DNA of 64,000 nucleotides from a virus (IMGVR_UViG_3300047462_000282:49337-113336), one strand, 5' to 3'. Positions 17,292 through 57,973 are shown, counted from the first letter of the stretch. Program-made: numbers and translations. The notes: a model not told the origin generated them from the letters alone.

Positions 17292-17293
17292 TC

Positions 17294-36376: not shown

Positions 36377-36419
36377 GTTGTTATATAGCAGGTGTATATG
36401 CATAATCTGGACTATAATT

Positions 36420-40067: not shown

Positions 40068-40667
40068 ATGGGAATGGATGAATTTGCGCCCTATCTAAAA
40101 CTAAACGGCACATTTATAGTTTTAAATCAATCTCCTCAAGTTAAGACCATTAAAATTTTCAACTATCCAATCCCTTATGGTCAAACCAGAGATTTATTAC
40201 AAATTCCTGGAGTTGCTGAACAGGATATTAGAGCGTCCTTGTTGAAGGGAGAGCTACAACATAAAATTCTTGCCCAAGATATTGTAATTGTAAGCAGCGA
40301 TATTGACTTGTTGCAGTTTAATGATGATCAGAAACAATTTTTGCGTAATGCCGGTATTGTTGATGGCTTGCAAGTCACTTCCACAAACTTTGCAGTTCTA
40401 AGAAAAGAAGATATCCAATTAATGGGAAATGTAGATGGAATCAATACTGTCTTTAGTATTCCTTCTGGTACTTTTATTGAGAACCCTACCTACAATATCA
40501 TAGTTTATAAAAACGGAGTCAAGCAAGTTTTTGCTGATGACTATTTCATTGCTGAAAGTGGAGGACCTGGTACAGGCTACGACACAGTAATCATGGTTGT
40601 ACCACCTACAACTACGCCTGCACCAGTAGACGTTATTACTGCTGACTACTATGTATTTAATCCATAA
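40068..40667 (+). CDS. Hypothetical probable structural protein (possible fibre base or adaptor)
   Basis: 199 aa; beta-rich C-terminus IVYKNGVKQ..DDY; directly precedes the collagen gene. Confidence 0.5.
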   Translation: MGMDEFAPYLKLNGTFIVLNQSPQVKTIKIFNYPIPYGQTRDLLQIPGVAEQDIRASLLKGELQHKILAQDIVIVSSDIDLLQFNDDQKQFLRNAGIVDGLQVTSTNFAVLRKEDIQLMGNVDGINTVFSIPSGTFIENPTYNIIVYKNGVKQVFADDYFIAESGGPGTGYDTVIMVVPPTTTPAPVDVITADYYVFNP

Positions 40668-40677
40668 GGTCTAAATA

Positions 40678-43600
40678 ATGAGTAAAATAAACGCCAGCCA
40701 AATCAAAGGAGTGCCATCAGGTTCTGATGGTGGCGGCGGTGTTTCGTCTGGAATTTACGTTCTAAATAACGGTGTTACTCTCGGACTATTTGATTCAATC
40801 AATTTTCATGGTAATGGTGTAACCACTGTTGGAACAGGCATTACTGCTGATATTCTAATTAACACCTCAGCAACTGGTACTGCAGGACCTCAGGGACCTA
40901 CAGGTCCAACAGGTCCTGCTGGTGCAACCGGACCTACCGGACCTCAAGGTCCAACTGGATCAATCGGTCCAACAGGAACTATTGGTGCTACAGGACCAAC
41001 AGGTCCTCAAGGTCCAACCGGAACTATAGGAGCTACGGGTCCTACAGGACCGCAAGGTCCAACAGGAAGTGTTGGTACTACGGGAGCACAAGGTCCAACT
41101 GGATCAATCGGTCCAACAGGAACTATAGGAGCTACTGGACCTACAGGACCTCAAGGTCCAACAGGAAGTGTTGGTACTACGGGAGCACAAGGTCCAACTG
41201 GATCAATCGGTCCAACAGGAACTATAGGAGCTACTGGACCTACAGGATCTCAAGGTCCAACCGGAACTATTGGTGCTACAGGACCAACAGGAAGTGTTGG
41301 AGCAACCGGACCTACAGGTCCTGCGGGAGCAACTGGTCCTCAAGGTGCAACAGGTCCTGCTGGTGTCAATGCTTTTTCTAATACGCCAACATTCATTCAG
41401 CCACTAGTTGGAACTACTGTTATTATTAGTATCGCAACCGGAATTGGTTGGGCACAAAATCAACAAACAGTCTTCGTATCTGGTGGTGGTTATTATCAAA
41501 TAGCAACTGCTGCAGGCGCAACACTTACTCTCCAAAATCTTGGTTATCAAGGAAATGCACCAGTTGGTAGTGCAATCAATCCAGCATTCTTATCACCAGC
41601 AGGTATCGCAGGACCAACAGGATTAACTGGAGCTACAGGTCCTGGAGGTCCACAAGGAGCAACAGGTCCAACTGGTCCTCAAGGTCCAACTGGCGCACAA
41701 GGTCCAACTGGTCCAGCTGGTGGCGGCTCACAAGGATCACCGGGTCCTACAGGAGCGCCAGGAATCAATGCTTATTCTACTTCGGCAGGCTTCACTCAGC
41801 CAGCTGTTGGTGCAGCAATAGCTATTCAAGTCCCAAGCGGCTACTGGATGCAACAAGGTCAATATGTCTTTATCCCAAGTGGTGGATACTATGTTGTAGC
41901 CTCTGGAAGTGTACCAACCTTCTCGATACAAAACTTAGGTTATTCTGGCGTTAACATTCCAGTTGGTAGTACTGTTGCAGCCGCCTTTATTTCTCCAGGA
42001 GGAGTAGCAGGAGCGACGGGAGCAACTGGTATACAAGGAACTACGGGTCCTACAGGTCCTCAAGGACCAACTGGCACCATTGGAGCAACAGGTCCTACTG
42101 GTCCTCAAGGCGCTACAGGACCAACAGGTCCTCAAGGTCCAACCGGCTCAATAGGCACTACAGGACCAACTGGTCCGCAAGGTCCAACTGGAACTATAGG
42201 CACTACAGGTCCAACAGGTCCTCAAGGTCCAACTGGAACTATAGGTGCTACAGGACCAACTGGTCCGCAAGGAGCTACAGGACCAACAGGTCCTCAAGGT
42301 CCAACTGGAACTATAGGTGCTACAGGACCAACAGGTCCTCAAGGTCCAACTGGAACTATAGGTGCTACAGGACCAACTGGTCCGCAAGGAGCTACAGGAC
42401 CAACAGGTCCTCAAGGTCCAACCGGCTCAATAGGCACTACGGGACCAACAGGTCCTCAAGGTCCAACAGGCACTATAGGCGCCACAGGACCAACGGGTGC
42501 ACCAGGTATCAATGCTTACTCTACTTCGGCAGGATTTACTCAACCTGCAGTAGGTGCAGCTATTGCTATTCAGATTCCATCTGCCTATTGGATGCAGGCT
42601 GGTCAATATGTATTTATTCCATCTGGCGGTTATTACACAGTAGCTTCTGGATCTGTGCCAACATTTAGTTTACAGAATCTTGGATATTCTGGCGTCAACA
42701 TTCCAGTCGGATCTACAGTCGCTGCTGCCTTTGTATCACCTGGAGGAGTTGCAGGCGCTACTGGCGTAACAGGATCTCAAGGTCCAACCGGAACTATTGG
42801 TGCGACAGGACCTACAGGACCTCAAGGTCCAACAGGAACTATTGGTGCGACAGGACCTATTGGTGCGACAGGACCTACAGGACCTCAAGGTCCAACCGGA
42901 ACTATAGGAGCTACGGGTCCTACAGGACCTCAAGGTCCAACAGGCACTATCGGCGCTACTGGTCCTACAGGACCTCAAGGTCCAACCGGAACCATTGGAG
43001 CTACAGGTCCTACAGGACCTCAAGGTCCAACAGGAACTATTGGTGCTACAGGTCCTACAGGACCTCAAGGTCCAACGGGAACTATAGGAGCTACTGGACC
43101 TACCGGACCTCAAGGTCCAACCGGAACTATAGGAGCTACGGGTCCTACAGGACCTCAAGGTCCAACAGGCACTATCGGCGCTACTGGTCCTACAGGACCT
43201 CAAGGTCCAACAGGCACTATCGGCGCTACTGGTCCTACAGGACCTCAAGGTCCAACGGGAACTATTGGTGCGACAGGACCTACTGGACCTCAGGGTCCAA
43301 CAGGATCTGTTGGTCCAACTGGATCAATTGGAGCAACCGGACCAACTGGAGCGCCAGGCATTAATGCATACTCTACTTCTGCAGGTTTCACTCAACCTGC
43401 TGTTGGAGCTGCAATTGCAATTCAAGTGCCAAGTGGTTATTGGATGCAGCAAGGTCAATATGTATTTATCCCTTCTGGTGGATATTATGTTGTTGCTTCT
43501 GGCAGTGTGCCAACCTTCTCGCTACAGAATTTAGGTTACTCTGGTGTAAATATTCCGGTAGGATCCACAGTTGCTGCTGCGTTTGTTTCTCCAGGAGGAG

Positions 43601-46600
43601 TAGCAGGAGCTACTGGCGTAACGGGTCCAACTGGACCTCAAGGTCCAACCGGAACTATTGGTGCGACAGGACCTACAGGACCACAAGGTCCAACAGGAAG
43701 TGTTGGTGCAACAGGTCCTACAGGACCTCAGGGTCCAACAGGAACTATTGGTGCGACAGGACCTACAGGACCACAAGGTCCAACAGGAACTATAGGAGCT
43801 ACTGGACCTACTGGACCTCAAGGTCCAACTGGCACTATCGGCGCTACAGGACCTACAGGACCACAAGGTCCAACTGGCACTATAGGAGCTACTGGACCTA
43901 CTGGACCTCAAGGTCCAACCGGAACTATAGGAGCTACTGGACCTACAGGACCTCAAGGTCCAACCGGAACTATAGGAGCTACTGGACCTACAGGACCTCA
44001 AGGTCCAACAGGAAGTGTTGGTGCAACAGGTCCTACCGGACCTCAGGGTCCAACAGGAAGTGTTGGTGCAACAGGTCCTACCGGACCTCAGGGTCCAACT
44101 GGCACTATCGGCGCTACTGGACCTACCGGACCTCAGGGTCCAACAGGAAGTGTTGGTGCAACAGGTAATCCGGGAATAAACGCTTACTCTACTTCTGCAG
44201 GTTTCACTCAACCAGCTGTAGGTGCAGCTATAGCAATACAAGTTCCATCTGCTTATTGGTTGCAAGTTGGACAGCACGTCTTCATTGCTTCTGGAGGCGC
44301 TTATGTAGTAGTCTCGGGTGCAGTGCCAACTTTCTCTATTCAAAATCTTGGACTATCTGGCGTAAACATTCCTGTAGGCAGTACAGTTGCTGCATCATTT
44401 GTTTCTCCTGATGGTATCCCTGGCGTTACCGGCGTAACAGGTCCTCAAGGACCAACTGGCACCATAGGTGCTACAGGTCCAACAGGTCCTGCTGGTGCAA
44501 CCGGCTCAATAGGCACTACAGGTCCAACAGGTCCTCAAGGACCAACTGGCAGCGTTGGAGCAACAGGTCCAACAGGTCCTGCTGGTGCAACCGGCTCAAT
44601 AGGCACTACAGGTCCAACAGGTCCTCAAGGACCAATTGGCACCATAGGTGCTACAGGCAACCCAGGTATTAATGCTTATTCAACCTCTGCTGGTTTCACA
44701 CAGCCTGCTGTTGGTGCTGCTATAGCAATTCAGATTCCTTCTGCTTATTGGCTGCAGGTAGGACAATATGTTTTTATCGCAAGTGGTGGAGCTTATGTAG
44801 TAGCATCAGGTGCAGTTCCAACCTTCTCGATTCAGAATCTTGGATTGTCTGGTGTAAACATTCCTGTAGGCAGTACAGTTGCTGCAAGCTTTGTATCCCC
44901 AGACGGGATACCAGGAGTAACTGGTGTAACAGGTCCACAGGGACCAACTGGAACCATTGGAGCTACAGGTCCTACAGGACCTCAAGGTCCAACAGGAACT
45001 ATTGGTGCGACAGGACCTACAGGACCACAAGGTCCAACTGGCACTATCGGCGCTACAGGACCTACAGGACCACAAGGTCCAACTGGCACTATAGGAGCTA
45101 CTGGACCTACTGGACCTCAAGGTCCAACCGGAACTATAGGAGCTACTGGACCTACCGGACCTCAGGGTCCAACAGGAAGTGTTGGTGCAACAGGACCTAC
45201 TGGACCTCAAGGTCCAACAGGAAGTGTTGGTGCAACAGGTAATCCGGGAATAAACGCTTACTCTACTTCTGCAGGTTTCACTCAACCAGCTGTAGGTGCA
45301 GCTATAGCAATACAAGTTCCTTCCGCATATTGGATGCAGATTGGTCAATATGTGTTCATTCCATCTGGCGGCGCTTATGTTGTCGCATCTGGTTCTGTTC
45401 CAACATTCAGTTTGCAGAATCTTGGAATCAGCGGAGTTAATATTCCTGTTGGAAGTTTGGTATCTGCAGCCTTTATATCTCCAGATGGTGTACCAGGAGT
45501 AACTGGCGTAACAGGTCCACAAGGACCAACTGGAACCATTGGAGCTACAGGACCTACAGGACCACAAGGTCCAACCGGAACTATAGGAGCTACTGGACCT
45601 ACAGGACCTCAAGGTCCAACAGGAACTATTGGTGCGACAGGACCTACTGGACCTCAAGGTCCAACAGGAACTATAGGAGCTACGGGTCCTACAGGACCTC
45701 AAGGTCCAACAGGAACTATTGGTGCGACAGGACCTACAGGACCACAAGGTCCAACAGGAACTATAGGAGCTACGGGTCCTACAGGACCACAAGGTCCAAC
45801 CGGAACTATAGGAGCTACTGGACCTACAGGACCTCAAGGTCCAACCGGAACTATTGGTGCGACAGGACCTACTGGACCTCAAGGTCCAACAGGAACTATA
45901 GGAGCTACGGGTCCTACAGGACCACAAGGTCCAACTGGCACTATCGGCGCTACAGGACCTACAGGACCACAAGGTCCAACTGGCACTATCGGCGCTACAG
46001 GACCTACAGGACCTCAAGGTCCAACAGGACCTCAGGGAGCTACGGGACCTCAAGGACCTGCCGGTACTCCTGGCTCGTTATTAACTAACGTTCCTTCGGG
46101 TTTCGTTTCTCCTGTTCTATCAATCCACATTTTGGGTGATAATTATAATGCCGCACCTACTGGACCAAACTTCTTAGATACATATCTTGTTGCTTCTGGT
46201 GCTACAGGTGGTTGGACTGGAATGGATGGACATTTACTTCAGTTCGGTTATTCTGCAGTAGGCGCCTCTGGATGGACCGATATTACTGGGTCTATAATTC
46301 AGACCGGTCAAATTTTTGTTATTGGAGCCACTGGTCCAAGAGGAAATCCTACATCATATTTACCAACTGGTTCATTTGCTAACAAAACGGGACAAATTGT
46401 TCAGATGAACAGCAATGCACCTGGTGCGTCCTATACTTTCATGGTTCCAACAACTGGTGTTCAAGTAATGGTTGCGGGACAGAATGCAGTGTCACAAGAT
46501 TTTGGATATGTATACGATGCAACGAACGGCGGTTGGAGAAAGCCACAAACAATGGCTTATTACTCTAATATTAAGACTGCCAACTATACTATTAACGTTA

Positions 46601-47454
46601 ATGATTATTTGATTGCAGTCGGACCATTGACACAAGCAATTACAATTACATTGCCAGATAATCCAACTATTGGAGATACCTATGGTGTTAAGGATGCTTT
46701 GGGTAGCGCTAGAACATTCAATATTACTGTTTCTGGTAACGGAAAAAATATTGATGCAGCTACCACATTCGTGATCACTAAACCGTATGCATCTTATTAC
46801 TTTGGTTACAATGGAACTCAATGGGGAATTGTAAGTGACTATGGTGTAGCAACTACCAGCGTGCCTATTTATGCTGGCGGCTCTCTTATAAATGCTGGAA
46901 CTGCTAACATTAACTTGCTTGGTGGATTGTTAGGTACAACCGGTCCAGCAAATACCATTAATATAAACTCCCTAAATGATTTCGTTCAAGTTGGTGTAAC
47001 TGGTGCTAACTTAAATGCTTCTGGTGCAGGAGCATCTGGTGGTATGATTCAATGGAATAGCGCGCAATATCTTCAAGGATTACTTGGACATACTACTATT
47101 GGAACGGCAGCAGGATGGATTACTGTTCAAAAATCTGGATACTGGGAAGTTAACTATAGTGTTGCTTTTACTGGAATGCCAAGTGGAGTAGCAGTTGAAG
47201 TTACACAATTCTTAGGAGCTACTGGTGGAAACGGACAATTTGGATATGGATCAGGAACTCCAATTGCGCAATCTCTTGCTTATTTAACTAATACTTCAAA
47301 TACAAATGTTCAATCACTAGATAAAAGCTACATAGTATATATTCCTTCTGGAACTAGTATTGAAACATATTATAGAAAAGTTGGTGCAGCTATCGCTACT
47401 GGATTAGCCGTATCACCAACTGGAAGCATGTTCTTCTTACAGTGTGTTGGCTAA
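40678..47454 (+). CDS. 2258-aa collagen-like fibre protein
   Basis: Long Gly-X-Y arrays (GPT, GPQ, GTI, GAT); seven interspersed ~83-aa domains; fibre-type [12 protein letters not shown] domain; C1q/BclA-like terminal beta domain. Confidence 0.9.
40885..46070 (+). repeat. Collagen tandem repeats (45-nt unit encoding [15 protein letters not shown]) interrupted by seven copies of an ~250-nt domain
   Basis: Domain copies start at about 41362, 41761, 42505, 43357, 44173, 44665 and 45247 ([17 protein letters not shown]...; the first copy is more divergent). Confidence 0.9.
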
Positions 47455-47515
47455 TTAATATTTATAGGTATAATTAAATATATTAATTTAAGCTACCAAT
47501 CGAGCGGGAGATTAC

Positions 47516-48295
47516 ATGCCATTTACAACTGTTTATTTTTCAAGCCACGGAACTTGGACTTGTCCAGGAGGAATAACTAATGTTTTAGTAGTTGGAGCTG
47601 GAGGTGCAGGAGGAGGCGGCGGCGGCTCCTCAGCCTGGGGCGGCGGCGGCGGTGGTGGCGCTGCCTTACAACAATCTGACTATTTATCAGTTACTTCTGG
47701 GAAAGTTTATACTATCAACATTGGGGCAGGAGGAGCTGGCGGATATTATGATGGAAGTAATTTATTCAGTGGCTATGGGGGAGACGGATATTCTACTACA
47801 ATAGTTAACTCACTTTCCGTCATAAGATTCAATGCGTTGGGTGGTGGTGGTGCTGGATCAGAAACTCAAGATTATAGTTTATCACCAATGTATGGTGGAA
47901 CGCCATTTGCAAAATCTAATGGTTTTGATACCTATATTAAAAGTGTAATATCAGCTGGCGGCGAAACATTTTATACTTTTCCTGGCAGCGGCGGCGCTGG
48001 CAGTAGCCTTATTTCTGGAATTGGCTCAGCACCAAGCGTTAATGGAATGATGAATTTTCTTGGTACATTTGCAGCTGGTATGGGTGGACATGACGGAGGC
48101 TGTTACGGTGGCGGTGGTGGTGCAGGTCCTAAAGGTATTGGTGGAAATGGCGGCGCAGGAATTACTAATGGTAATGGCATCGATGCAGCATCAAACAGCA
48201 GTGCAGGCGGCGGCGGTGCAGGAAGCGACGGAACTACGCTAATTGGCGGCAAAGGCGGAAATGGTGGTTCAGGTTATCTTTATCTTATTTACTAA
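47516..48295 (+). CDS. Glycine-rich protein, probably fibre-associated
   Basis: FSSHGTWTCPGGITNVLVVGAGGAGGGGGG...GGNGGSGYLYLIY is a typical phage glycine-rich domain. Confidence 0.7.
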   Translation: MPFTTVYFSSHGTWTCPGGITNVLVVGAGGAGGGGGGSSAWGGGGGGGAALQQSDYLSVTSGKVYTINIGAGGAGGYYDGSNLFSGYGGDGYSTTIVNSLSVIRFNALGGGGAGSETQDYSLSPMYGGTPFAKSNGFDTYIKSVISAGGETFYTFPGSGGAGSSLISGIGSAPSVNGMMNFLGTFAAGMGGHDGGCYGGGGGAGPKGIGGNGGAGITNGNGIDAASNSSAGGGGAGSDGTTLIGGKGGNGGSGYLYLIY

Positions 48296-48390
48296 ATAGA
48301 ACAGACAGTCCGATACAATTGGTAAGCGCTTAATTTTGATGATATAATACATTATATCGGACTGACTCTATTTCATAATCAAGGAAAGAT

Positions 48391-51300
48391 ATGCCTAAAG
48401 CCAATGTAAGTGTCTGCATCATCGTTAAAAACGAGCCCCTTTTAGAAAATTGTCTAAAATCTATTCGTGATTATGTGGAAGAAATTGTAATAGTAGATAC
48501 TGGCTCTACTGACAATACCCCAGAAGTTGCTAAGAGATACGCGAATATTTTTGAAGTTTATAGAGACTGTAATGATCCTCAAACAGGATTAATTGCAAAT
48601 TTTTCTAAGGCACGTCAGCGCTCTTTTGATTTAGCAACCAAAAAATGGGTTATGTGGGCTGATGCTGATGATACTATTGTTGGAATTGAAAATTTACATC
48701 AAATAATTGAAGATTTCGAAAAATCTAATTCAGAATTAGATGCAATTTCTTATTTATTTCCATATGAGTATGCATATGATGCAAATAATCGATGTACATG
48801 TTTACATTACAGAGAAAGAGTATTCTCTAATAAGAAGTTTTTCCGATGGCTTGGACCAGTGCATGAAGTTGCTGTACCAAATGAGGGCGCTAGAGTTTCT
48901 TTAGTTACTAGAGAAGATATTATATGGAAACATAATCGTCAATATAGTCCAAAAGCGCCAGAGCCCGGTCGTAATCTACGTATTTTAAGAAAATATTTTG
49001 AGGAAGTTGGTGGCAGTGATGCTCGCCAAATGTATTATCTTGGTCTTGAGTGCTGTAATGCTGGATTAATCGATGAAGCCATTGGTCATCTTTCAAAGTA
49101 TGTAGATATTTCTGGATGGGACGACGAGCGCGCCATGGCATGCCTAAAGTTAGTAGATATTTACTATGCTAGAGGTGATTGGGAAAATGGGCTCAAGTGG
49201 GCATTCAAAACTGTTGCTATTCAAGAAAATTGGGGTGAGGGTTATTTCGCTTTAGCTAAAATGTTTTATCACTTAGCATCAGCTGGAGGACCCAATGAAA
49301 GAAGAAATTGGGAGCGCTGCGTTCATTTTGCAAGAACTGGTCTAAGATTGCCTCCTACCAAAACTTTATTGTTTGTCAATCCAAATGAAAGAGAAGTTGA
49401 CATACATAAATACTTAAATTTAGCACTTAATAAGATAGGTGATGTCAAAGCTGCTCTGGCTAGTGTTATGATTGCCTTGCAAAAGCAACCTAATGACACA
49501 ATGTTGGCTAACAACAGAAAATTATATGAAGATTTCTTGGCACGCCAAGAAATCGTTAAGTTTCTTGGAGCTATGAGGGACAACGGTACGATAAATCAAG
49601 CCTCAGTTGAAGCTGTTTCTGCCATCATAAACAATCTTCCAGTGCCTGGTAATTTGATAAATAGTACGCCTCCAACTGGTAGCACTCCAGTTGTTGTAGA
49701 TAATCAGTTTCCAATAGCTGGCACAACCTCTAATGGACAAGAGTGGGCTATCCCGAACACATATGATTTTTCTGGTTTCCCAATTAAGATGACAGATGAA
49801 CAGCTGCAAGCAGCAGTCATCATGATTTGGAAACAATACATGTTACATGATGAAGTGTTGTCAGCCATTTCATTCTTAGAAAATGCGCCATATAATGTAC
49901 GCCACTCGGTTGCAACAGAGAAAGCCCTAAGTCTTACTAAGGGATGTCTCGAATGGATGGGAACAGACGAAGCATTTGAGAAAGTGAACTCTCCAGGTTT
50001 AGATAGAGAGGCTGGAACTCCATTACCACTTCAATTAAGAGATTCTGCCGAAGCACATCGTTTTGATTTGATGATGGCTCATATGAAGCCAAGTTCCTCA
50101 ATAGTAGACTTTGGTAGCATGGATGGCTGTTTCACAAACCGTTATGGCATGGCAGGACACAAACCAGTTGGATTAGATGGCTGTGATCACACGGTCAAAT
50201 TAGCCAATAGAAAGGCGGCTGAATTCAACACTGGTGCGCAACACATTCACACCTATTTTAGTGAGGCAGAGAATAAGGTTCCTGCACATTCTTTCGATTA
50301 CGCAACAAGTACTGATACCTATGAGCACATAAAAGACCCAGTAAAAGAAATGTTTGTTCCTGCCAAGAAAATGCTCAAGGAAGATGGTACATTTTTGCTT
50401 GCAACGCCATATGGTGCGTGGATGCGTGGACAATATATCCCTTGGGCACATCCTTGGAATTGGACGCATACCGGAGAGAGCTGGCTGAAAGTCACTCCAA
50501 GAGCACACTTAATTGCCCCTACACCTTGGACAGTTGCTGCTGATTTCCAAAAGGCAGGTTATTGGGTCAAAAATAGTTATGCTGACTTGTGTGCAGATAG
50601 CTTTAAGAGTGTCGAGGATCAGGGAAACATTTTCGCAGAGGCTTGCGTTAAGCCGCCATCAAACTATCCTGGACTTGATATCGTATTCTTCATCGGTGAT
50701 GGAGTTGAGCAGTGGACACCAGAAACAGTTAAGAAAACTGGCATTGGTGGCAGCGAACTAATGGCTATAGAAATGACTAAACGTTTAGCAGCGCTGGGTC
50801 ACAAAGTTAGGGCATATAATAGCTGCGGCAAAAATGGAGAAGGAATTTATGATGGTGTCGAATATAGATTCACTAACAAGTTCCAAGATCTTAAGTGTGA
50901 CGTACTAGTTGTGTCTCGCCGCGCCGATATGTTGGATGATAAATACAACATCCAAGCCAGCCTAAAGTTACTTTGGGTTCATGATGTATTTGCAATCAAT
51001 GCATCTAATAAATTACTACTAAAGGCAGATAAGATTCTTGCCCTTTCAGAATGGCATAAGCAATTTCTGATTAGTTATCATAATGTTCATCCAGAACACA
51101 TCTTAGTAACTAGAAATGGTATTAATTTGTCTAGATTTGAAAAGTCCGTTCCAAGAAACAGATTCAAAACTGTTAATTCTAGTAGTCCAGATAGATCTTG
51201 GCCAGTTCTATTAGATGTTTGGCCAGAAATTAAAGCAAAAGTTCCTCAAGCCGAATTACACTTGTATTATGGTTTCAAAAATTGGGAATTTTCAGCTCAA

Positions 51301-51795
51301 TATCAGCCAGGACATATGGATTTGATTAATAGATTAAAACAACAAATAAAGGATTTGGAAGGTCAAGGAGTTGTCTATCATGATAGAGTGACCCAGGAAA
51401 AATTGGCAGAAGAATTCCTGTCTGCTGGCGCATGGATTTATCCAACTTGGTTCTCCGAGACCTCTTGTATTACTGGAATGGAAGTCCAAGCAGCTGGTTT
51501 AAGACCTATTACATCAAGCATTGCTGCGCTTAATGAAACCATTGCTGATAGGGGTGTTAGAATTGATGGGGATTGGACCACACCAGAGTATAAGAAAAAG
51601 TTTGTAGATTCTGTAGTTGCAGCACTTCAAAAGGAAGACAATAGCGACCGAGTTGCACTTCAACAATATGCTAAAGAACATTTTAGCCTGGATATATTAG
51701 CATCAGACTGGGGAAAGATGTTTGAACAGTTAATAGATTCTAAAAAATCTAATCCTGTCATTCCATATCAACCAACGAAAGAGTATACGAAATGA
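48391..51795 (+). CDS. Multidomain glycosyltransferase: GT2 + TPR + SAM methyltransferase + GT-B (GT4-like)
   Basis: VCIIVKNE, IVDTGSTD, WADADD; TPR-like QMYYLGLEC; IVDFGSMDG; SSSPDRS and YPTWFSETSCITGMEVQAAG. Confidence 0.85.
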   Translation: MPKANVSVCIIVKNEPLLENCLKSIRDYVEEIVIVDTGSTDNTPEVAKRYANIFEVYRDCNDPQTGLIANFSKARQRSFDLATKKWVMWADADDTIVGIENLHQIIEDFEKSNSELDAISYLFPYEYAYDANNRCTCLHYRERVFSNKKFFRWLGPVHEVAVPNEGARVSLVTREDIIWKHNRQYSPKAPEPGRNLRILRKYFEEVGGSDARQMYYLGLECCNAGLIDEAIGHLSKYVDISGWDDERAMACLKLVDIYYARGDWENGLKWAFKTVAIQENWGEGYFALAKMFYHLASAGGPNERRNWERCVHFARTGLRLPPTKTLLFVNPNEREVDIHKYLNLALNKIGDVKAALASVMIALQKQPNDTMLANNRKLYEDFLARQEIVKFLGAMRDNGTINQASVEAVSAIINNLPVPGNLINSTPPTGSTPVVVDNQFPIAGTTSNGQEWAIPNTYDFSGFPIKMTDEQLQAAVIMIWKQYMLHDEVLSAISFLENAPYNVRHSVATEKALSLTKGCLEWMGTDEAFEKVNSPGLDREAGTPLPLQLRDSAEAHRFDLMMAHMKPSSSIVDFGSMDGCFTNRYGMAGHKPVGLDGCDHTVKLANRKAAEFNTGAQHIHTYFSEAENKVPAHSFDYATSTDTYEHIKDPVKEMFVPAKKMLKEDGTFLLATPYGAWMRGQYIPWAHPWNWTHTGESWLKVTPRAHLIAPTPWTVAADFQKAGYWVKNSYADLCADSFKSVEDQGNIFAEACVKPPSNYPGLDIVFFIGDGVEQWTPETVKKTGIGGSELMAIEMTKRLAALGHKVRAYNSCGKNGEGIYDGVEYRFTNKFQDLKCDVLVVSRRADMLDDKYNIQASLKLLWVHDVFAINASNKLLLKADKILALSEWHKQFLISYHNVHPEHILVTRNGINLSRFEKSVPRNRFKTVNSSSPDRSWPVLLDVWPEIKAKVPQAELHLYYGFKNWEFSAQYQPGHMDLINRLKQQIKDLEGQGVVYHDRVTQEKLAEEFLSAGAWIYPTWFSETSCITGMEVQAAGLRPITSSIAALNETIADRGVRIDGDWTTPEYKKKFVDSVVAALQKEDNSDRVALQQYAKEHFSLDILASDWGKMFEQLIDSKKSNPVIPYQPTKEYTK

Positions 51796-52913
51796 AGATT
51801 GCTTTCTTATTCAGTCCTTGGGGAGCTGGCAACAGACCGCTAGATTTTAAAGAGCTTTGGACAAGTTCCAGAGGCTTGACTGGCAGCGATCTTGGCATTG
51901 CCATTATTGCAAAAGAAATGGTTAAACGTGGACATGAGGTTTCTCTGTTTACTTTCCATACTGACCCAGCTAACAAGCTAGAATCATGGGAAGGCGTTAA
52001 GCTATATAATTTCGAAGATGCTGCAACAGTCATTAAGCCAGATTGGGATGCCGTTATCAGTTGGAACGAACCAGACGCTCTTCGAGGAATATCTAAGAAG
52101 CCTCTTCGTATTTGCAATCAGATGTTAAATGATTTTACTTACTGCAAGCCTGGCTTTGATGATTTTGTTGATGTTTGGTGTTCCCCATGTCAAATGCATA
52201 TGGAACATCTTAAAAAAACCGCTCCAGACCCAAAGAAATGGACTGTGCTACCTCTTGGCTGTGAACCATCTTGGTACAAAGACGGACCAAGAGTTCCTGG
52301 TAGAGTAGTTTGGACGTCTTCTGCTGATCGTGGGCTTCATTTGCTATTACAAGAATGGCCAAAAATTAAAGCAGCTGTTCCAGAAGCTCATTTGAAAGTA
52401 TTCTATAATTTCAACTACTCCCATATAGAAAATCTTGAATTCAATGATCAAAATACTCATCCACATGTAAAGGAAATTGCTAATAGAGCAAGATACATGA
52501 TGGAAATGATGAAAAGACTGAAACCATTGGGCGTGGAGCATGTGGGTTCTATTAGTCGCGCACGCATGGAACAAGAATTGAGTGAGGCTATGGTACTAGC
52601 TTATCCTGTTTCAACTGTAGCGTTTACCGAAGGATTTTCCATTTCAATAATGGAATCATGTGCAGCTGGAGTATTTCCTGTTATTTCTGATGCCGATTGT
52701 TTAGGAAGCATTTATGGAGGAACAGTACCTATGGTTAAGTCTCCTGCTGGGGAACATATGGCTGAATTTGATTCTTTAGTAATTAAAGGATTAACTGATT
52801 CATCTTATCGTTCAGAAGTTATAGATAAGTGCAAGAAGTTTTCTCTAAACTATACTTGGACTAGTATTGCTGAAAAACTAGAAACACTAATCAAAAAATA
52901 TCCGGAAATATAA
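51792..52913 (+). CDS. GT-B (GT4-like) glycosyltransferase
   Basis: TSSADRGL; AYPV..TEGFSISIMESCAAG (EX7E). Confidence 0.85.
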   Translation: MKIAFLFSPWGAGNRPLDFKELWTSSRGLTGSDLGIAIIAKEMVKRGHEVSLFTFHTDPANKLESWEGVKLYNFEDAATVIKPDWDAVISWNEPDALRGISKKPLRICNQMLNDFTYCKPGFDDFVDVWCSPCQMHMEHLKKTAPDPKKWTVLPLGCEPSWYKDGPRVPGRVVWTSSADRGLHLLLQEWPKIKAAVPEAHLKVFYNFNYSHIENLEFNDQNTHPHVKEIANRARYMMEMMKRLKPLGVEHVGSISRARMEQELSEAMVLAYPVSTVAFTEGFSISIMESCAAGVFPVISDADCLGSIYGGTVPMVKSPAGEHMAEFDSLVIKGLTDSSYRSEVIDKCKKFSLNYTWTSIAEKLETLIKKYPEI

Positions 52914-53332
52914 TGAAAAATAAAGAATATACCAGTTTAGTTAATGAGGGTAAATTTCCAAGTGAACTTCGTGTTCCATTGGATAAACCATTCGAAGATG
53001 CTAGGGGCAAAATCCAAAATCTTGTGCTAGATCCAATTACTAGCGTTGCAATCATTACCAGTAAAGCTGGAACGGTTAGATCGAATCATTATCATAAGAC
53101 TGATTGGCATTATTTATATGTTATTTCTGGCTCTATGAAATATTATGAGCGAGATGTTGACTCTGATAATCAAATTGAGCCTATTGTTGTAAAAGCAGGC
53201 GAAATGGTATTTACAGGACCAATGAAAGTTCACAAAACAGAGTTTTTAGAAGATACCGTGATGATGAGCTTTGCAAAGAATGTCAGAGATCATGAGCATC
53301 ACGAAGAGGATGTTGTTCGCGTGGAGTTCTAA
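52913..53332 (+). CDS. RmlC-like cupin (NDP-sugar epimerase / ketoisomerase)
   Basis: FEDARGKI; SKAGTVRSNHYHK..YLYVISGS; GPMKVH. Confidence 0.75.
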   Translation: MKNKEYTSLVNEGKFPSELRVPLDKPFEDARGKIQNLVLDPITSVAIITSKAGTVRSNHYHKTDWHYLYVISGSMKYYERDVDSDNQIEPIVVKAGEMVFTGPMKVHKTEFLEDTVMMSFAKNVRDHEHHEEDVVRVEF

Positions 53333-54528
53333 TGAAAGTATTTGAATGCAGACTGTGTAAGGGAAGACTAAGTGAGCCCAAGATAAATCTTGGGAAAACT
53401 CCGCTTGCTAATGAGTTTGTAAAAACTAAAGAGCCTCAGGACTTGTTTCCGCTGGAAGTATGTGTTTGCGAGTCTTGTGAACACTATCAGTTAAATGAGC
53501 AAGTAGAGCCCGAAAGAATGTTTAGAAACTATCTTTTCGTTGCTGGGACATCTCCAGTTAATGTTGAACATTTCAGACAATACGCCCTCCAAATGGTTGA
53601 AAGATTTGATTTACAATCTGATAGTAAAGTGCTAGATATCGCCAGCAATGATGGTACCTTATTGAAGCACTTCAAAGATTTAGGTTTGCAAATACTTGGC
53701 ATTGACCCGGCTGTAAATTTAGCCGAAAAAGCTACTAAAAATGGCATAGAGACGATTGCGGAATTTTTTACCGAACAATATGCTGATGTTATGCTGGAGA
53801 AATATGGTCAATTTGATTTGATTACAGCAAACAATGTGTTTGCTCATGTGCCCGATATGATTGGATTTGCAAAGGGTGTAAAAAAACTTCTCAAACCAAA
53901 TGGAGTTTTTACTTTTGAAGTATCTTATTTTGGCGATGTATGTGATAAAACTTTATTTGATACTATTTATCATGAACATACCAGTTATCATACGGTGAAA
54001 CCACTAATATCATTTTTCAATCAATATCAAATGGAAGTATTTGATATTGAGCCTATAACTAATCATGGCGGCTCTATTCGTGTATATGTTGAAAATGCAT
54101 ATGGAGATTACTCTGCTTTGAGTCTTGACTCTTTTATTCATTCGAAATATTATATGGAAAATAAAGTAGCTAGATTACAAAAAGATATCAAGCTGCTTGG
54201 ATATGAATTAAGAGAAAAATTACAAGAGCTAAAGTCACAAGGAAAATCTATTGCCATCTATGGGGTACCAGCAAAAGCAACCACGCTCATGTATGCTTTG
54301 AATATCGATGAAAATATGATTGATTTTGCTGTGGATGATGCACCTTTAAAGCAAGGAACATTTACACCGGGCAAACACATTCCAGTTTTCCCAACTAAAA
54401 TGATTTATGCTAAGCATCCTGACTATCTTCTAGTTTTAGCGTGGAATTTTGCCGATTCTATCATTGAAAGACATCGCAATTTTGGTGGCAAGTTCATCGT
54501 TCCAATTCCGGAACTAAAGGAAGTTTGA
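53332..54528 (+). CDS. NDP-hexose C-methyltransferase
   Basis: Zn-binding CRLC..CESC, VLDIASNDGTLL, ANNVFAH, IYHEHTSY, YGVPAKATT, LAWNF; same layout as EryBIII/TcaB9/NovU-type enzymes. Confidence 0.85.
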   Translation: MKVFECRLCKGRLSEPKINLGKTPLANEFVKTKEPQDLFPLEVCVCESCEHYQLNEQVEPERMFRNYLFVAGTSPVNVEHFRQYALQMVERFDLQSDSKVLDIASNDGTLLKHFKDLGLQILGIDPAVNLAEKATKNGIETIAEFFTEQYADVMLEKYGQFDLITANNVFAHVPDMIGFAKGVKKLLKPNGVFTFEVSYFGDVCDKTLFDTIYHEHTSYHTVKPLISFFNQYQMEVFDIEPITNHGGSIRVYVENAYGDYSALSLDSFIHSKYYMENKVARLQKDIKLLGYELREKLQELKSQGKSIAIYGVPAKATTLMYALNIDENMIDFAVDDAPLKQGTFTPGKHIPVFPTKMIYAKHPDYLLVLAWNFADSIIERHRNFGGKFIVPIPELKEV

Positions 54529-55442
54529 TGTTTTATTTTAGACACGTTAATAGGATGACTTATCCACAAAAGCACGTATTAGTTTGTGAGGATGATCTTA
54601 CACAGCAAAAAAGAATAGCAGAACATTTTAGTTCGGTATTTGATACTCAAGGAATAGTTCAGTTCAGTTTTGTACCTGGTGCTGTGGCAGCCGCATCAAT
54701 CATTAGCAGCTGTAAAATTGATTTGGTAATTTTAGATCATGACATGCCTGAGGGCAATGGGGCTGATTTGATAGCTTGGATGAAAGAAAATAAGAAGGAT
54801 ATCCCAATAATTACCTTTTCTGGAATTGCTCAGAATAATGCTAACATGATGGCTGCGGGCGCCACTCATCTAGCCGGGAAAGAAGAAGTTATTAGAGGGC
54901 AAGTCGATGATCTTATTAAAACAATACTTGGATTAAAACAAGCTAATGTTGGAATTGCTGAAACATACGTTAATACTGTTTGTATCAACACACCTACTGC
55001 TACTAGATATTGGGTCATGCCAAATATAATGGTTGGTGGCAGTGTGACAAGCAAAGAAGACTGGGAACATTTGCAAAAAGCCTACAATATGGGCGCCGTT
55101 ATCAACGTTGAAACAGAGCATTCTGATGTTGGTAAAGGAATTGATAAACTTCTAGAAATTCAAGTTCCAGATAATGGTACGCCATTTCCATTTGATGTCG
55201 TTAAAAAGGCAGTGCTATTTTCTAAAAATAACATGGATAAAAACATCTATGTGCACTGCCAAATGGGAGCTTCACGTAGCCCAGCATTTGCATATGCGGT
55301 TTTAAGATACTGTTATAATATGACCCCTCAGCAAGCTTTAGAAAAAATAAATGAGAGCTATCCATCTCACAATTATGGTTATCACGGCTATCATCAAACC
55401 TATATTGGATCAATAGAACAAGCTTTAGCTGAATTGATATAA
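54525..55442 (+). CDS. Receiver (REC) domain fused to a dual-specificity phosphatase
   Basis: VLVCEDD, VILDHDMP, ITFSG, conserved Lys; C-terminal VHCQMGASRS (CX5R); start may be ATG 54556. Confidence 0.8.
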   Translation: MMFYFRHVNRMTYPQKHVLVCEDDLTQQKRIAEHFSSVFDTQGIVQFSFVPGAVAAASIISSCKIDLVILDHDMPEGNGADLIAWMKENKKDIPIITFSGIAQNNANMMAAGATHLAGKEEVIRGQVDDLIKTILGLKQANVGIAETYVNTVCINTPTATRYWVMPNIMVGGSVTSKEDWEHLQKAYNMGAVINVETEHSDVGKGIDKLLEIQVPDNGTPFPFDVVKKAVLFSKNNMDKNIYVHCQMGASRSPAFAYAVLRYCYNMTPQQALEKINESYPSHNYGYHGYHQTYIGSIEQALAELI

Positions 55443-55449
55443 AGGTTAT

Positions 55450-56415
55450 ATGAAGAAAATACTTGTAACAGGCTCATGTGGATTCATTTTCTCTAATTTT
55501 ATGAGAAAAGTAATACGAGAGACTGCCTATTACGATTTTGTTAGTGTAGATAAAGTAATTGCTCCATATAATCGTTATAATGTGGAAATTAATCAAGACC
55601 ACAATTTTTACATGGGTGACATTGCTGATGAAATGTTTATGAATAATGTATTTAGCATTGAAAAGCCAGATATTATCATTCATGGTGCAGCAGAAAGTTT
55701 TGTAGACGATTCCATTAGAAGTGCAGGACCATTTATTCATTCCAATGTTGTTGGAACGCAGGTTATGGTAGACCTGGCACTCAAACATGGAGTAGAGCGT
55801 TTTGTGTATGTTAGCACTGACGAAGTATATGGACAACTAACTAGTGACAAAGATGAATCTTGGACCGAAAAGTCTCCACTCAGCCCTAGAAATCCATACT
55901 CAGCATCTAAAGCAGCTGGGGAGCTAATTGTTAAGGCAGCCAACCAAACTCACGGTTTAAATTATAACATTACCAGGTGCTGCAATAACTACGGACCTAG
56001 CCAACCGCCCCGTAACTTAATTCCTAAAGCCATTTCCTGCATACTAAACGGGACGCCCATTCCTATCCATGGAAATGGAAAGCAGTTCCGTGAATGGATT
56101 TATGTAGAGGATCATTGCTCTGCTATCATGAAGATTGTAAAAGATGCTCCATTGAATGAGACATACAACATTGGTTCGGGTATTGAGTCCACCAATCTTA
56201 AAATGGTACATAAAATTTCCAAATTAATTGGAAATGAAGGTGCTGTGGTCAATTTTGTCAAGGACCGTCCTGGACATGATTTCAGATACTCGGTTGATTG
56301 TGCCAAAATACACAATTTAGGCTGGTTCCCAAGTTTTGATTTTGATGCAGGCATGAATAAATGTGTTGATTGGTATCTTAACAATAAGTGGTATTTAGAT
56401 TCAGTCAAATTATGA
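55450..56415 (+). CDS. rfbB: dTDP-glucose 4,6-dehydratase
   Basis: ILVTGSCGFI, AAESFVD, STDEVYG, PYSASK, NNYGP, DRPGHDFRY. Confidence 0.9.
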   Translation: MKKILVTGSCGFIFSNFMRKVIRETAYYDFVSVDKVIAPYNRYNVEINQDHNFYMGDIADEMFMNNVFSIEKPDIIIHGAAESFVDDSIRSAGPFIHSNVVGTQVMVDLALKHGVERFVYVSTDEVYGQLTSDKDESWTEKSPLSPRNPYSASKAAGELIVKAANQTHGLNYNITRCCNNYGPSQPPRNLIPKAISCILNGTPIPIHGNGKQFREWIYVEDHCSAIMKIVKDAPLNETYNIGSGIESTNLKMVHKISKLIGNEGAVVNFVKDRPGHDFRYSVDCAKIHNLGWFPSFDFDAGMNKCVDWYLNNKWYLDSVKL

Positions 56416-57203
56416 AAAATTTATTGTTAATTGGTAATGGTAAATGGGGACAAAAATATATCTCTACTTTATCTGCATTTCCAAATGTAAAATTACAAGT
56501 TGCTACTCGTAGTAATTGGAAATCTCTTGTAGATGAGCGTCCCGATGGTGTAATGGTATGCACTCCACCAGAGTCTCATGTAGAGTTAGCGGCTTATTCT
56601 CTTGAAAAAGACATTCCAACTATGATAGAAAAACCACTCAGCCTATCAGTTGCAGAGGCAAGTATACTACAGAAATTCTCAGCACCTATCCTTGTTAATC
56701 ATATTCATCTTTTCTCTACTGCTTATCAAAATTTACAAAGAATGATTAAGCCACACACTATTGATAAAATAGTTTCGTTAGGCTATAACAATGGACCCAT
56801 TAGAAGTTATTCTAGTCTTTGGGATTATGGCTGTCATGATTTATCTATGATTTTAGATTTAACTAGAACTTTTCCATTTGGAATCCAAGCTAATCAAATT
56901 TCTACTGATACTGGAAGTTTGTTTAATATAAAATTAGATTTTGTAACCTTTTCTGCAGAGAGTCTTGTAGGAAATGGTGGGCAAAAGCCAGTCAGGAAGC
57001 TAAAGGTGGAGTGTGGTGGTCTTAAAATAGCCTATGATGATAAAATGCGCTCACCTAATCACTCTCCTCCTTTAACAAACGCCCTCAATACCTTTATTAG
57101 AGCAATTGATGGGGAGAAAGATTATAGATTAGGTTTAGACTTATCAATAAAAGTCATTAAAATACTAGAATCTTGTCACAATCTGCTGAATTTGCCTCAT
57201 TAA
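56412..57203 (+). CDS. Gfo/Idh/MocA-family NAD(P)-dependent oxidoreductase
   Basis: LLIGNGKWG, VCTPPESH, IEKPL, WDYGCHD; ATGA overlap start at 56412. Confidence 0.8.
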   Translation: MKNLLLIGNGKWGQKYISTLSAFPNVKLQVATRSNWKSLVDERPDGVMVCTPPESHVELAAYSLEKDIPTMIEKPLSLSVAEASILQKFSAPILVNHIHLFSTAYQNLQRMIKPHTIDKIVSLGYNNGPIRSYSSLWDYGCHDLSMILDLTRTFPFGIQANQISTDTGSLFNIKLDFVTFSAESLVGNGGQKPVRKLKVECGGLKIAYDDKMRSPNHSPPLTNALNTFIRAIDGEKDYRLGLDLSIKVIKILESCHNLLNLPH

Positions 57204-57241: not shown

Positions 57242-57973
57242 ATGAGTAAGTATTATGTTTATGTGGTCATCAACCAGATAAATAATAAATTATATGTGGG
57301 TAAAACCAATAATCCAACGGTAAGATGGCATGACCACAAAAAAGTAGCACTTGGAGGTCGGGAAAAATATCCAGAAGACTTCTTTGCTATCCATGCCGCC
57401 TTACACAAGTATGGCATCTATAATTTTATATTTAAAATTATAGATGAATTCGATGATGAGAACGAGGCTTATCGAGCTGAGACGCAGTATATTTTACTAT
57501 CGTGTTCTAACCTTAAAAAATTTGGATACAACTGCAATCTTGGCGGTGAGGGAGGTATTTCGCCAAGTCCCGAGACCAGGCAGAAGTTGATTGCTGCTGC
57601 CAACAAGCCAGAAAAGATAAAACTATCATCAGATATGATGAAGAAACGACATCAGGACAATCCTGGATTTTTATCAAATGTTCATAAGGGCAATCAGTAT
57701 ACTAAGGGACGAAAACTACCTCAAAAAGAAAAAGACCATCTGTCAAAAATGATGAAAGGACGATTTGTTTCGGATGAAACAAAAAAGAAAATGTCCGAAG
57801 CTCAAACTGGTGAAAAAAGTTCACGGGCTAAACTAACAGAAAAAGAAGTTCTAGAAATTAGATCCAAATACATTCCTGGCAAATATGGGTATGTCAAATT
57901 ATCAAAAGAATATGGTGTCCACGATGAAACGATACGTAGTATTATTAAGAGAACATCGTGGAGTCACATATGA
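57242..57973 (+). CDS. GIY-YIG homing endonuclease with NUMOD3-like repeats and C-terminal HTH
   Basis: YVYVVINQINNKLYVGKT, GYNC, SDETKKKMSEA, KLTEKEVLEIR. Confidence 0.85.
   Translation: MSKYYVYVVINQINNKLYVGKTNNPTVRWHDHKKVALGGREKYPEDFFAIHAALHKYGIYNFIFKIIDEFDDENEAYRAETQYILLSCSNLKKFGYNCNLGGEGGISPSPETRQKLIAAANKPEKIKLSSDMMKKRHQDNPGFLSNVHKGNQYTKGRKLPQKEKDHLSKMMKGRFVSDETKKKMSEAQTGEKSSRAKLTEKEVLEIRSKYIPGKYGYVKLSKEYGVHDETIRSIIKRTSWSHI

Follow-up and report, generated by a model that had tools for sequence, protein, structure and literature searches.

A candidate phage-encoded system for glycosylation of a threonine-rich collagen-like fibre with a C-methylated deoxysugar

Virion glycosylation is already known from mycobacteriophages and giant viruses (PMC9614988), as is the O-glycosylation of BclA-type collagen, and our literature search found no paper on the glycosylation of phage collagen-like fibres. 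Here we report the analysis of a 64,000-nucleotide stretch of environmental viral DNA (IMGVR_UViG_3300047462_000282:49337-113336; hereafter referred to as the window), in which the gene for a threonine-rich collagen-like fibre protein is followed, on the same strand, by genes for glycosyltransferases (GTs), methyltransferases and deoxysugar-synthesis enzymes, together spanning positions 40678 to 57203. On balance, we favour the reading that this block encodes a soluble phage system that would O-glycosylate the collagen-like fibre in the cytoplasm, with a methylated glycan containing a phage-made C-methyl-6-deoxyhexose. To the known cases, the analysis adds a megaphage clade in which the arrangement is conserved and, within one block, a complete C-methyl deoxysugar pathway dedicated to it.

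The window corresponds to bases 49337-113336 of a 193.5-kilobase (kb) IMG/VR viral record with a CheckV completeness of ~45%, which is part of a very large phage (megaphage) genome. Positions are those of the window unless they are prefixed with G000:C1, which denotes the whole contig, and features in the window lie on the + strand. An earlier note on this DNA had listed the fibre gene, a Gly-rich gene, three GT domains, tetratricopeptide repeats (TPRs), methyltransferases, a cupin, the dehydratase RfbB (RmlB below) and a Gfo/Idh/MocA reductase, and all of them were found on that strand at the coordinates it gave. Its description of the enzyme genes as one operon is not established: the genes between 51792 and 57203 overlap or sit 7 base pairs apart, sigma-70-like sites lie 5′ of 47516 and of 48391, and no terminator was evident in a promoter and terminator scan. 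Promoter-like sites (62) were mildly above the shuffle mean of 46.5 (standard deviation 7.1), and terminators were at the shuffle level.

The fibre protein and the transferases encoded beside it

The fibre protein P0001 (40678-47454; PF01391, E 1.5e-153) has 2258 amino acids (aa) as assembled, the exact length of its gene being uncertain owing to long, near-identical DNA repeats in a short-read assembly. It consists of a 66-aa N-terminal head, eight collagen runs with seven globular inserts, and a 457-aa non-collagen C-terminus. The runs total 394 Gly-X-Y (GXY) triplets, including 134 GPT, 72 GAT, 66 GPQ and 48 GTI; proline occupies X in 210 of them, and threonine occupies Y in 223 and X in 58, with 281 threonines inside the runs. 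The seven inserts, or knots, are 77 aa each, and all but one of them are mutually 84-100% identical. With a rise of 0.28 nm per residue in collagen (PMC12357932), the collagen parts would extend ~330 nm if they were fully triple-helical. The C-terminus has a PHROG match, phrog_972 ‘tail fiber protein proximal subunit’ (E 4e-13), and its look-alikes in the ESM Atlas (lambda Stf-like and DUF2793 proteins) score below 0.9 and serve as leads only. The GC content of the collagen gene is 0.49, because of its Gly, Pro and Thr codons, whereas that of the cluster (0.37-0.39) matches that of the genome (0.397).

The long GXY region, the dominance of GPT-type triplets and the threonine at Y liken the fibre to Bacillus BclA, whose collagen regions are decorated with short O-glycans that contain the rare sugars anthrose or cereose (PMC12357932). 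Unlike BclA, the phage fibre gave no match to PF18573 (BclA-C), to C1q or to an exosporium leader in the Pfam scan, and it has seven knots and a tail-fibre-type end instead of a C1q-like C-terminal domain. An N-terminal motif, (V/I)N(A/S)(S/D)QIKG, is common to several collagen-like proteins of the clade (window, L006 and L007; L numbers denote individual loci) and could serve in attachment to the virion or in recognition by the enzyme. The contig encodes a second collagen-like protein (G000:C1:186718-188838, 706 aa) with 87 GXY triplets and threonine at Y in 36, ~90 kb downstream of the first and away from both GT clusters of the contig.

The largest enzyme of the block is a four-module fusion (48391-51795), comprising a GT-A domain of family GT2 (aa 1-185, 48391-48945; PF00535, E 1.4e-15), a TPR/helical-repeat domain (aa 194-413, 48970-49629), a class I S-adenosylmethionine (SAM) methyltransferase domain (aa 553-735, 50047-50595; PF13489, E 6.8e-10) and a GT-B domain of family GT4 (aa 760-1120, 50668-51750; PF13439 and PF13692). 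In the AlphaFold (AF2) model, with a mean predicted local distance difference test (pLDDT) score of 86, residues 1-185 form an alpha/beta GT-A fold, 194-413 are all-helical, 553-735 form the methyltransferase and 760-1120 the GT-B fold, and a disordered linker separates the helical-repeat and methyltransferase domains. The TPR region is barely visible to Pfam alone and is shown by a profile search together with the fold (AF2 model and Foldseek). Across an alignment of 20 fusion homologues (47-73% identity), the acidic residues D91, D93 and D94 of the GT-A domain are invariant, and the SAM-binding residues D573, G575 and D596 of the methyltransferase domain and the GT-B glutamates E1023 and E1031 are kept.

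A profile search of the Protein Data Bank with the fusion returned GmaR first (E 8.4e-29), followed by SunS (E 3e-17) and ThuS (E 3.7e-15). In the profile searches, TPR proteins matched aa 201-296, P3H1/CRTAP matched weakly at 337-393, and the methyltransferase domain weakly matched that of WbdD (E 2e-5). By fold, the GT-A/TPR part resembles SPY, ThuS, SunS and OGT, which are TPR-bearing protein glycosyltransferases; ThuS and SunS align over ~300-400 columns with template-modelling (TM) scores of 0.57-0.65 by target and ~15-19% identity, and the GT-B domain resembles MshA, PimA and GlgM (TM 0.65-0.71 by target). GmaR, a Listeria flagellin O-GlcNAc transferase that is itself a GT + TPR protein (PMC9638930), and SunS/ThuS match the phage module best in both sequence and fold and share its arrangement, in which the GT-A domain precedes a TPR or helical domain that binds the substrate; they are cytoplasmic and have a protein or peptide acceptor. 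They differ from the phage enzyme in that their acceptors are flagellin or small bacteriocin peptides and that they have no fused methyltransferase, GT-B domain or dedicated sugar pathway. The GT-A domain is predicted from sequence to be an initiating protein O-glycosyltransferase, the TPR domain, as modelled, is predicted to be a substrate-recognition module, and the fused methyltransferase domain is a predicted glycan O-methyltransferase.

The closest functional precedent is the Clostridioides difficile enzyme SgtA, a 358-aa protein with a GT-A domain (1-260) and four TPRs that is encoded next to bclA3 and adds beta-O-GlcNAc to threonines of GPT-repeat peptides in vitro (PMC7157674). The phage block likewise places the gene for a soluble GT-A + TPR enzyme beside that for a GPT-rich collagen-like protein. 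When searched alone, the GT-A/TPR module matches thousands of proteins, including a large set of 355-362-aa GT2+TPR proteins (E ~1e-34 to 1e-38), some of them labelled Peptostreptococcaceae or Paraclostridium; the Paraclostridium match lies 4 kb from a collagen-like gene of 64 triplets, 41 of which have threonine at Y. Because of the GmaR, SunS and ThuS matches and those to the Peptostreptococcaceae GT2+TPR proteins, the module appears to belong to the broad class of SgtA, the only enzyme proven to act on bacterial collagen-like repeats, an assignment made through SgtA-sized relatives. Compared with SgtA and BclA, the phage system is virus-encoded, its enzyme is fused with an extra methyltransferase and a GT-B domain, and its sugar pathway would be deoxythymidine diphosphate (dTDP)-based, with a cupin and a Gfo/Idh/MocA enzyme. 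Predicted as a complex with the first 110 residues of the fibre (aa 1-110), the GT-A/TPR module (aa 1-415) scored 0.00, with the partner poorly folded, a result that counts neither for nor against an interaction.

The fusion gene is followed by that of a second GT-B (GT4-like) glycosyltransferase of 373 aa (51792-52913; phrog_2170 ‘glycosyltransferase’), whose PF13692 and PF00534 matches fall just under the cutoff and whose orthologues (37-56% identity) are present in every locus of the clade described below. No transmembrane-like segment (19-residue window, hydrophobicity of at least 1.8) was found in any protein of the cluster. We consider it likely that the cassette transferases act on protein.

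Enzymes of a C-methylated deoxysugar pathway

Four enzymes of the cassette fit the synthesis of a branched deoxysugar. The dTDP-glucose 4,6-dehydratase RmlB (55450-56415) scores 350.5 bits on the TIGR01181 equivalog model, against a cutoff of 365.1, with GalE the next, unrelated family at 123 bits; among solved structures, the ten best matches are without exception dTDP-glucose 4,6-dehydratases, led by 2hun (E 1.9e-80), and the ‘VSTDEVYG’ (STDE) and ‘YSASK’ motifs are kept in the alignment with 2hun. The protein encoded at 53332-54528 has the three-domain architecture of the nucleoside diphosphate (NDP)-hexose 3-C-methyltransferases of the TylC3/TcaB9/MtmC/KijD1 family (a Cys4 zinc domain, PF08421, E 6e-17; a class I SAM domain, PF13489, E 7e-17; and a C-terminal Methyltransf_14 domain, PF08484, E 5e-38), and it aligns end to end with MtmC (4rv9, E 2.5e-74), TcaB9 (E 1e-58) and KijD1. 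Its four zinc cysteines (Cys4) align with those of TcaB9 and MtmC, and its ‘FAHVP’ and ‘IYHEH’ (Y-x-E-H) motifs align with ‘LCHIP’ and ‘IYDEH’ of TcaB9; we take the histidine of ‘AHVP’ and the Y-x-E-H residues to have the active-site role that they have in TcaB9. The enzyme is predicted to be of the 3-C type, and a branch at C3 is more likely than a noviose-like 5-C-methyl group.

The cupin (52913-53332) is probably of the FdtA/QdtA 3,4-ketoisomerase or CapF C3-epimerase type. In fold it is closest to the dTDP-4-keto-6-deoxyglucose 3,4-ketoisomerases FdtA, QdtA, FdtD and WlaRA/B: its AF2 model (pLDDT 93.7) has FdtA (2pa7) as the top Foldseek match (TM 0.70/0.72, 24% identity), with FdtD, CapF, QdtA and WlaRA/B within the top 40, and the ranking continues with RmlC and StrM. 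In a profile search against solved structures, the cupin domain of CapF was best (E 1.3e-6) and QdtA reached only E 0.18; in Pfam, there was no match to PF05523 (FdtA), and PF14667, the CapF/WbcJ C-terminal domain, was the best match, alongside Cupin_2. Residues H59, H61, H66 and H107 are invariant, and the H59-x-H61 pair is a candidate counterpart of His49/His51 of FdtA. The predicted role of the cupin is that of a nucleotide-4-keto-6-deoxysugar isomerase or epimerase. The last enzyme is a compact Gfo/Idh/MocA NAD(P) oxidoreductase (56388-57203; PF01408, E 1.9e-10), which weakly matches UDP-GlcNAc 3-dehydrogenase in NCBIfam and matches 3c1a (E 5.8e-21). Its GxGxWG, EKP and HD motifs are invariant in seven orthologues, and it is predicted to be a sugar ketoreductase.

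The contig also encodes an RmlA-like nucleotidyltransferase (TIGR01208, 197 bits) and an RmlD-like short-chain dehydrogenase/reductase (SDR), side by side at G000:C1:3895-5589 (L002), 86 kb upstream of the cassette and beside an IS200/IS605-type transposase gene (region G000:C1:2663-5589). The same pair occurs in a complete 428-kb relative (L008) at 47-48% identity, far from the cassette of that genome. The phage thus appears to carry all steps from glucose-1-phosphate to a reduced, C-methylated 6-deoxyhexose, with step order and stereochemistry not readable from the sequence. We judge it highly probable that the cassette makes an NDP-C-methyl-6-deoxyhexose. A plain rhamnose pathway, in which the cupin would work with the RmlD-like SDR, was not adopted, as the cupin is FdtA/CapF-like rather than RmlC-like; the pathway may nevertheless be one to a 6-deoxy-L-hexose.

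The profile, motif and fold evidence upholds the enzyme assignments of the earlier note and its pathway logic of 4,6-dehydration, C-methylation, and isomerization or reduction. Its statement that RmlA is absent from the window is true, with RmlA-like and RmlD-like genes present elsewhere in the genome. The ‘virenose/noviose type’ of sugar that it named is only one option, and noviose, with its 5-C-methyl group, is the less likely form. No sugar aminotransferase was found in the window, as it had said, nor in the 193-kb contig at its ~45% completeness. The search for a 2,3-dehydratase (PF03559) gave no match and is uninformative, as the control genomes gave none either. The complete 428-kb relative does encode a DegT/DnrJ/EryC1 sugar aminotransferase, beside an SDR epimerase/dehydratase (L046; G001:C1:302831-306937); its homologue is not in the 193-kb contig, and that part of the genome may simply be missing. 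In combination with an FdtA-like cupin, an enzyme of this kind would open a route to 3-amino-3,6-dideoxy sugars. The distal RmlA/RmlD-like pair and the ketoisomerase/epimerase option for the cupin had not been part of the earlier note, nor had the receiver-phosphatase gene and the second GT/RmlB cluster described below.

Bacterial branched 6-deoxysugar pathways, such as those for mycarose (MtmC/TylC3), tetronitrose (TcaB9), kijanose (KijD1) and Bacillus cereus cereose, share with the phage the sequence of a 4,6-dehydratase, a 3-C-methyltransferase that contains zinc and depends on SAM, and then a ketoreduction. The phage set differs in that an FdtA/CapF-like cupin and a Gfo/Idh/MocA enzyme replace the usual RmlC/RmlD-type partners, and in that the sugar presumably goes to protein rather than to an antibiotic aglycone.

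Conservation beside collagen genes and the competing explanations

A database search with the fusion found 798 relatives at E 1e-5 or better, of which over 100 cover nearly the full length with at least 47% identity, many on contigs of 240-480 kb. We examined nine distinct loci of this clade (window, L003, L005, L006, L007/L016, L010, L011/L012, L014 and L017; fusion identity 47-73%), and in all nine, one or more Thr-rich collagen-like genes lie directly upstream of the fusion on the same strand. These genes range from 58 to 691 triplets; they are usually preceded by the same two unassigned proteins, and Gly-rich proteins often come after them. Loci with a downstream flank continue in the order fusion, GT4, cupin, C-methyltransferase, dehydratase, Gfo and, in most cases, patatin; L017 departs from this with a rearranged cassette in which no cupin, C-methyltransferase or Gfo gene could be recognised. 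The methyltransferase is a separate gene in L003, and in L007/L016 the dehydratase position (16293-17339) is held by an SDR only 25% identical to RmlB, which points to a non-orthologous replacement, possibly with a different nucleotide carrier. The enzymes are conserved across the clade and fibre length is highly variable, the pattern to be expected if the enzymes are dedicated to modifying the fibre. Beyond the clade, differently ordered GT4-GT2(-FkbM methyltransferase) fusions adjoin collagen-like genes, mostly divergently, in at least seven groups of viral contigs (L026-L038 and L042-L044). The proposal of the earlier note that the transferases act on the neighbouring fibre gains strength from the synteny in the clade, from the pairing in unrelated contigs and from the relatedness of the GT-A/TPR module to glycosyltransferases proven to act on proteins and peptides.

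Several observations weigh against fibre glycosylation. Synteny within one clade is largely inherited and does not amount to independent observations, and the collagen/GT pairing is given as raw counts. Enzymes of ~760 aa with a GT2-TPR-GT4 architecture, found in small phages, adjoin capsid genes (L018-L025, L041 and MW202524), and no collagen gene was found in ~170 kb of their flanks; because of this collagen-free sister group, the fusion-type enzyme is not tied to collagen. Two high-GC relatives (L013 and L015) have nothing closer to collagen nearby than Gly-rich proteins with a handful of short GXY runs. MshA/PimA-type GT4 enzymes frequently use small molecules or lipids as acceptors. The contig has a second GT/RmlB cluster (G000:C1:161072-168706, window coordinates 111736-119370, beyond the window end; L049), whose RmlB paralogue is 53% identical to that of the cassette, and the C-methyl sugar could feed another product. 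None of the sequencing runs recorded as RNA contains the stretch.

The ~760-aa enzymes bear on the possibility that the cassette glycosylates another virion protein, such as the major head protein, the Gly_rich_2 protein or the large fibres encoded downstream, and that the collagen gene is a mere neighbour. These enzymes, which come after the capsid gene, are candidates for capsid rather than fibre glycosylation; the proven cases of phage virion glycosylation concern subunits of the capsid and of the tail tube (Freeman et al. 2023, as summarized in PMC12619734), and the head protein gene of the window lies only 4.4 kb upstream of the fibre gene. The collagen gene, however, is the immediate upstream partner in every low-GC megaphage locus that has an upstream flank, unrelated GT fusions are likewise paired with collagen genes, and the 281 repeat threonines of the fibre mirror the proven SgtA/BclA3 acceptor (PMC7157674). 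We regard another virion target as unlikely, if far from fanciful. The phages carrying the ~760-aa enzymes are podovirus-like, with the enzyme gene right after the major capsid gene and with further GTs and methyltransferases (MW202524.1, L009:3147-5432).

A host target in place of a virion target is also conceivable, with the cassette serving as an auxiliary metabolic island for remodelling of the host envelope, be it O-antigen, capsule, teichoic acid or S-layer glycan; one purpose might be to keep out superinfecting phages. Bacterial O-antigens include C-methyl deoxysugars, and GT4 enzymes commonly make cell-surface glycans. This is also the standard interpretation of sugar and GT clusters in jumbo phages, cyanophages and pelagiphages (PMC7824862, PMC7029224). 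Against it, no initiating phosphoglycosyl transferase, flippase, polymerase or membrane-spanning protein was found in the cluster or the 193-kb contig, and a search of this ~45% complete contig for Wzx/Wzy-like proteins (more than five transmembrane-like segments) gave none; the lack of membrane proteins argues against a self-contained envelope-polysaccharide pathway, although the contig is incomplete and host enzymes could provide the membrane steps. The closest relatives of the GT-A/TPR module are glycosyltransferases that act on proteins and peptides, and the genes are co-oriented between head and fibre genes and conserved beside collagen genes. In addition, none of 185,579 species-representative bacterial and archaeal genomes, searched with a few peptide patterns from the fusion alignment, contains a relative of the fusion. 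We therefore hold envelope remodelling to be rather improbable.

Sugar hypermodification of phage DNA bases as an evasion of restriction is very improbable: phage GTs that put diverse glycans on 5-hydroxymethylcytosine or 5-hydroxymethyluracil DNA are known (bioRxiv 10.1101/2023.12.21.572611) and an Fpg/Nei DNA glycosylase gene adjoins the second GT cluster, but GmaR/SunS-type TPR GT-A enzymes and a branched deoxysugar pathway are foreign to known DNA glycosylation systems, the genes lie within the structural region beside fibre genes, and, as weak evidence, a hydroxymethylase-type thymidylate synthase homologue was not found in the contig and the one in the complete relative looks ordinary.

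Gene neighbourhood, proposed mechanism and implications

The region upstream of the cassette encodes a large terminase, a portal, a giant protein that contains a protease, and the major head protein (35292-36305; phrog_2522, E 1e-76). Two conserved proteins precede the fibre gene. A 279-aa protein (39224-40063) had no Pfam, NCBIfam or PHROG match and has homologues of 37-48% identity at the same position in L003, L005, L006, L010 and L011; a 199-aa protein (40068-40667), immediately 5′ of the fibre gene, likewise had no match in the family searches, and its homologues (52-78% identity) lie directly before the collagen gene in the same five loci. Between fibre and fusion, the gene at 47516-48295 encodes a Gly_rich_2 protein (PF21722, E 2.7e-13), a fibre/receptor-binding type module, whose clusters in the ESM Atlas consist almost entirely of phage proteins, tail-fibre proteins among them, and whose homologues come after collagen genes in L005, L007 and L043.

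Within the cassette, the gene at 54525-55442 encodes a fusion of a receiver (REC) domain (PF00072, E 3e-11) and a dual-specificity phosphatase (DSP) (PF00782, E 4.5e-9). Its REC acidic pocket and ‘ILDHDMP’ phospho-acceptor motif look intact by eye. A REC-only homologue with 63% identity occupies the same site in L010 (19310-19726), a DSP-only homologue occurs in L017 (23518-24024), a REC gene lies between GT genes in L024 (4496-5056), and the gene is absent from L003, L005, L006 and L007, which suggests a recurrent but optional regulatory add-on. Downstream, a patatin-like phospholipase (57958-58830; PF01734, E 2.5e-29) has counterparts directly after Gfo in L003, L005, L007, L010 and L011, and before a GT gene in L017. 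Homing endonuclease genes (LAGLIDADG and GIY-YIG) flank the module at 36378-37301 and 57242-57973, and some homologues of the four-module enzyme contain intein and LAGLIDADG domains, insertions of a kind expected in a conserved, important gene. The second GT/RmlB cluster comes after three giant proteins of 1370, 2384 and 1179 aa and comprises, besides its RmlB paralogue, a GT4, a GT2, an opposite-strand LAGLIDADG endonuclease, the Fpg/Nei glycosylase, an unassigned protein and another GT2; a TubZ/PhuZ-like tubulin is next.

The phage has no close cultured relative: the enzyme block gave no megablast match among 50,697 phage records and its terminase is only ~24% identical to those of cultured Bacillus phages. 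The sequencing runs that contain the full-length stretch are moss metagenomes only, and peat runs contain pieces of it. A search for tRNA genes gave none.

For the favoured reading, fibre glycosylation, we infer a mechanism in which pathway order and sugar identity, the donor of each transferase, the acceptor protein and residue, and the benefit to the phage are all conditional. The RmlA-like enzyme and RmlB would supply dTDP-4-keto-6-deoxyglucose, the TcaB9/MtmC-type enzyme would put a methyl branch on C3, and the FdtA/CapF-like cupin would shift the keto group or epimerize the sugar. Reduction of the keto group by the Gfo/Idh/MocA enzyme, the distal RmlD-like SDR or both would then yield the NDP-C-methyl-6-deoxyhexose. 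The GT-A/TPR module would recognize the newly made collagen-like fibre protein and transfer the first sugar to threonine (or serine) of the GPT and GAT triplets, in the manner of SgtA on BclA3 and GmaR on flagellin. The two GT-B domains would lengthen the chain and the fused methyltransferase would O-methylate the glycan, after which the glycosylated fibre would trimerize and be mounted on the virion. A role of the glycan in stability, shielding or adhesion, as the earlier note had it, is speculation.

Compared with known viral systems, the block has its own combination of features. In mycobacteriophages Che8, Corndog and Myrna, virion glycosylation (Freeman et al. 2023, PMC10527164, as summarized in PMC12619734) likewise involves phage GTs encoded within the structural gene region and glycans displayed on the virion, a display that is predicted here; the targets given in that summary are the C-termini of capsid and tail-tube subunits, and it reports neither a collagen-like fibre nor a branched-sugar pathway. 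Giant viruses (Mimivirus fibrils and chlorovirus capsid glycans), like this phage, encode nucleotide-sugar synthesis and multi-domain GT/methyltransferase enzymes, in their case for surface structures of their own (PMC9614988, PMC4691112), and Mimivirus has collagen-like genes together with collagen-modifying enzymes (PMC9546862). They differ from it in having eukaryotic hosts and other enzyme families, and in that collagen is glycosylated on hydroxylysine rather than threonine.

More tentatively, and with the odds against the picture in its entirety, a clade of ~400-kb phages may build ‘glyco-fibres’, with simpler versions in many unrelated phages: very long beaded filaments, here of ~330 nm, whose threonines would carry all-viral methylated glycans, supplied by what would be the first virus-encoded C-branched deoxysugar pathway and, in some members, linked by a receiver-domain phosphatase to host two-component signalling.

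If fibre glycosylation is confirmed, large environmental phages would be seen to coat host-recognition or surface fibres with rare sugars of their own making, virion glycosylation would extend past mycobacteriophages and giant viruses, and BclA-type collagen O-glycosylation would reach viruses. The cassette would then provide a compact, soluble, membrane-free enzyme set for building branched methylated glycans on (GPT)n peptides, and a single biochemical test would, given the size of the fusion family, annotate hundreds of genes. It would also offer a testable explanation for the recurrence of collagen-like fibre and glycosyltransferase genes in phages, and would be a warning not to annotate phage sugar clusters as host-surface remodelling genes by default.

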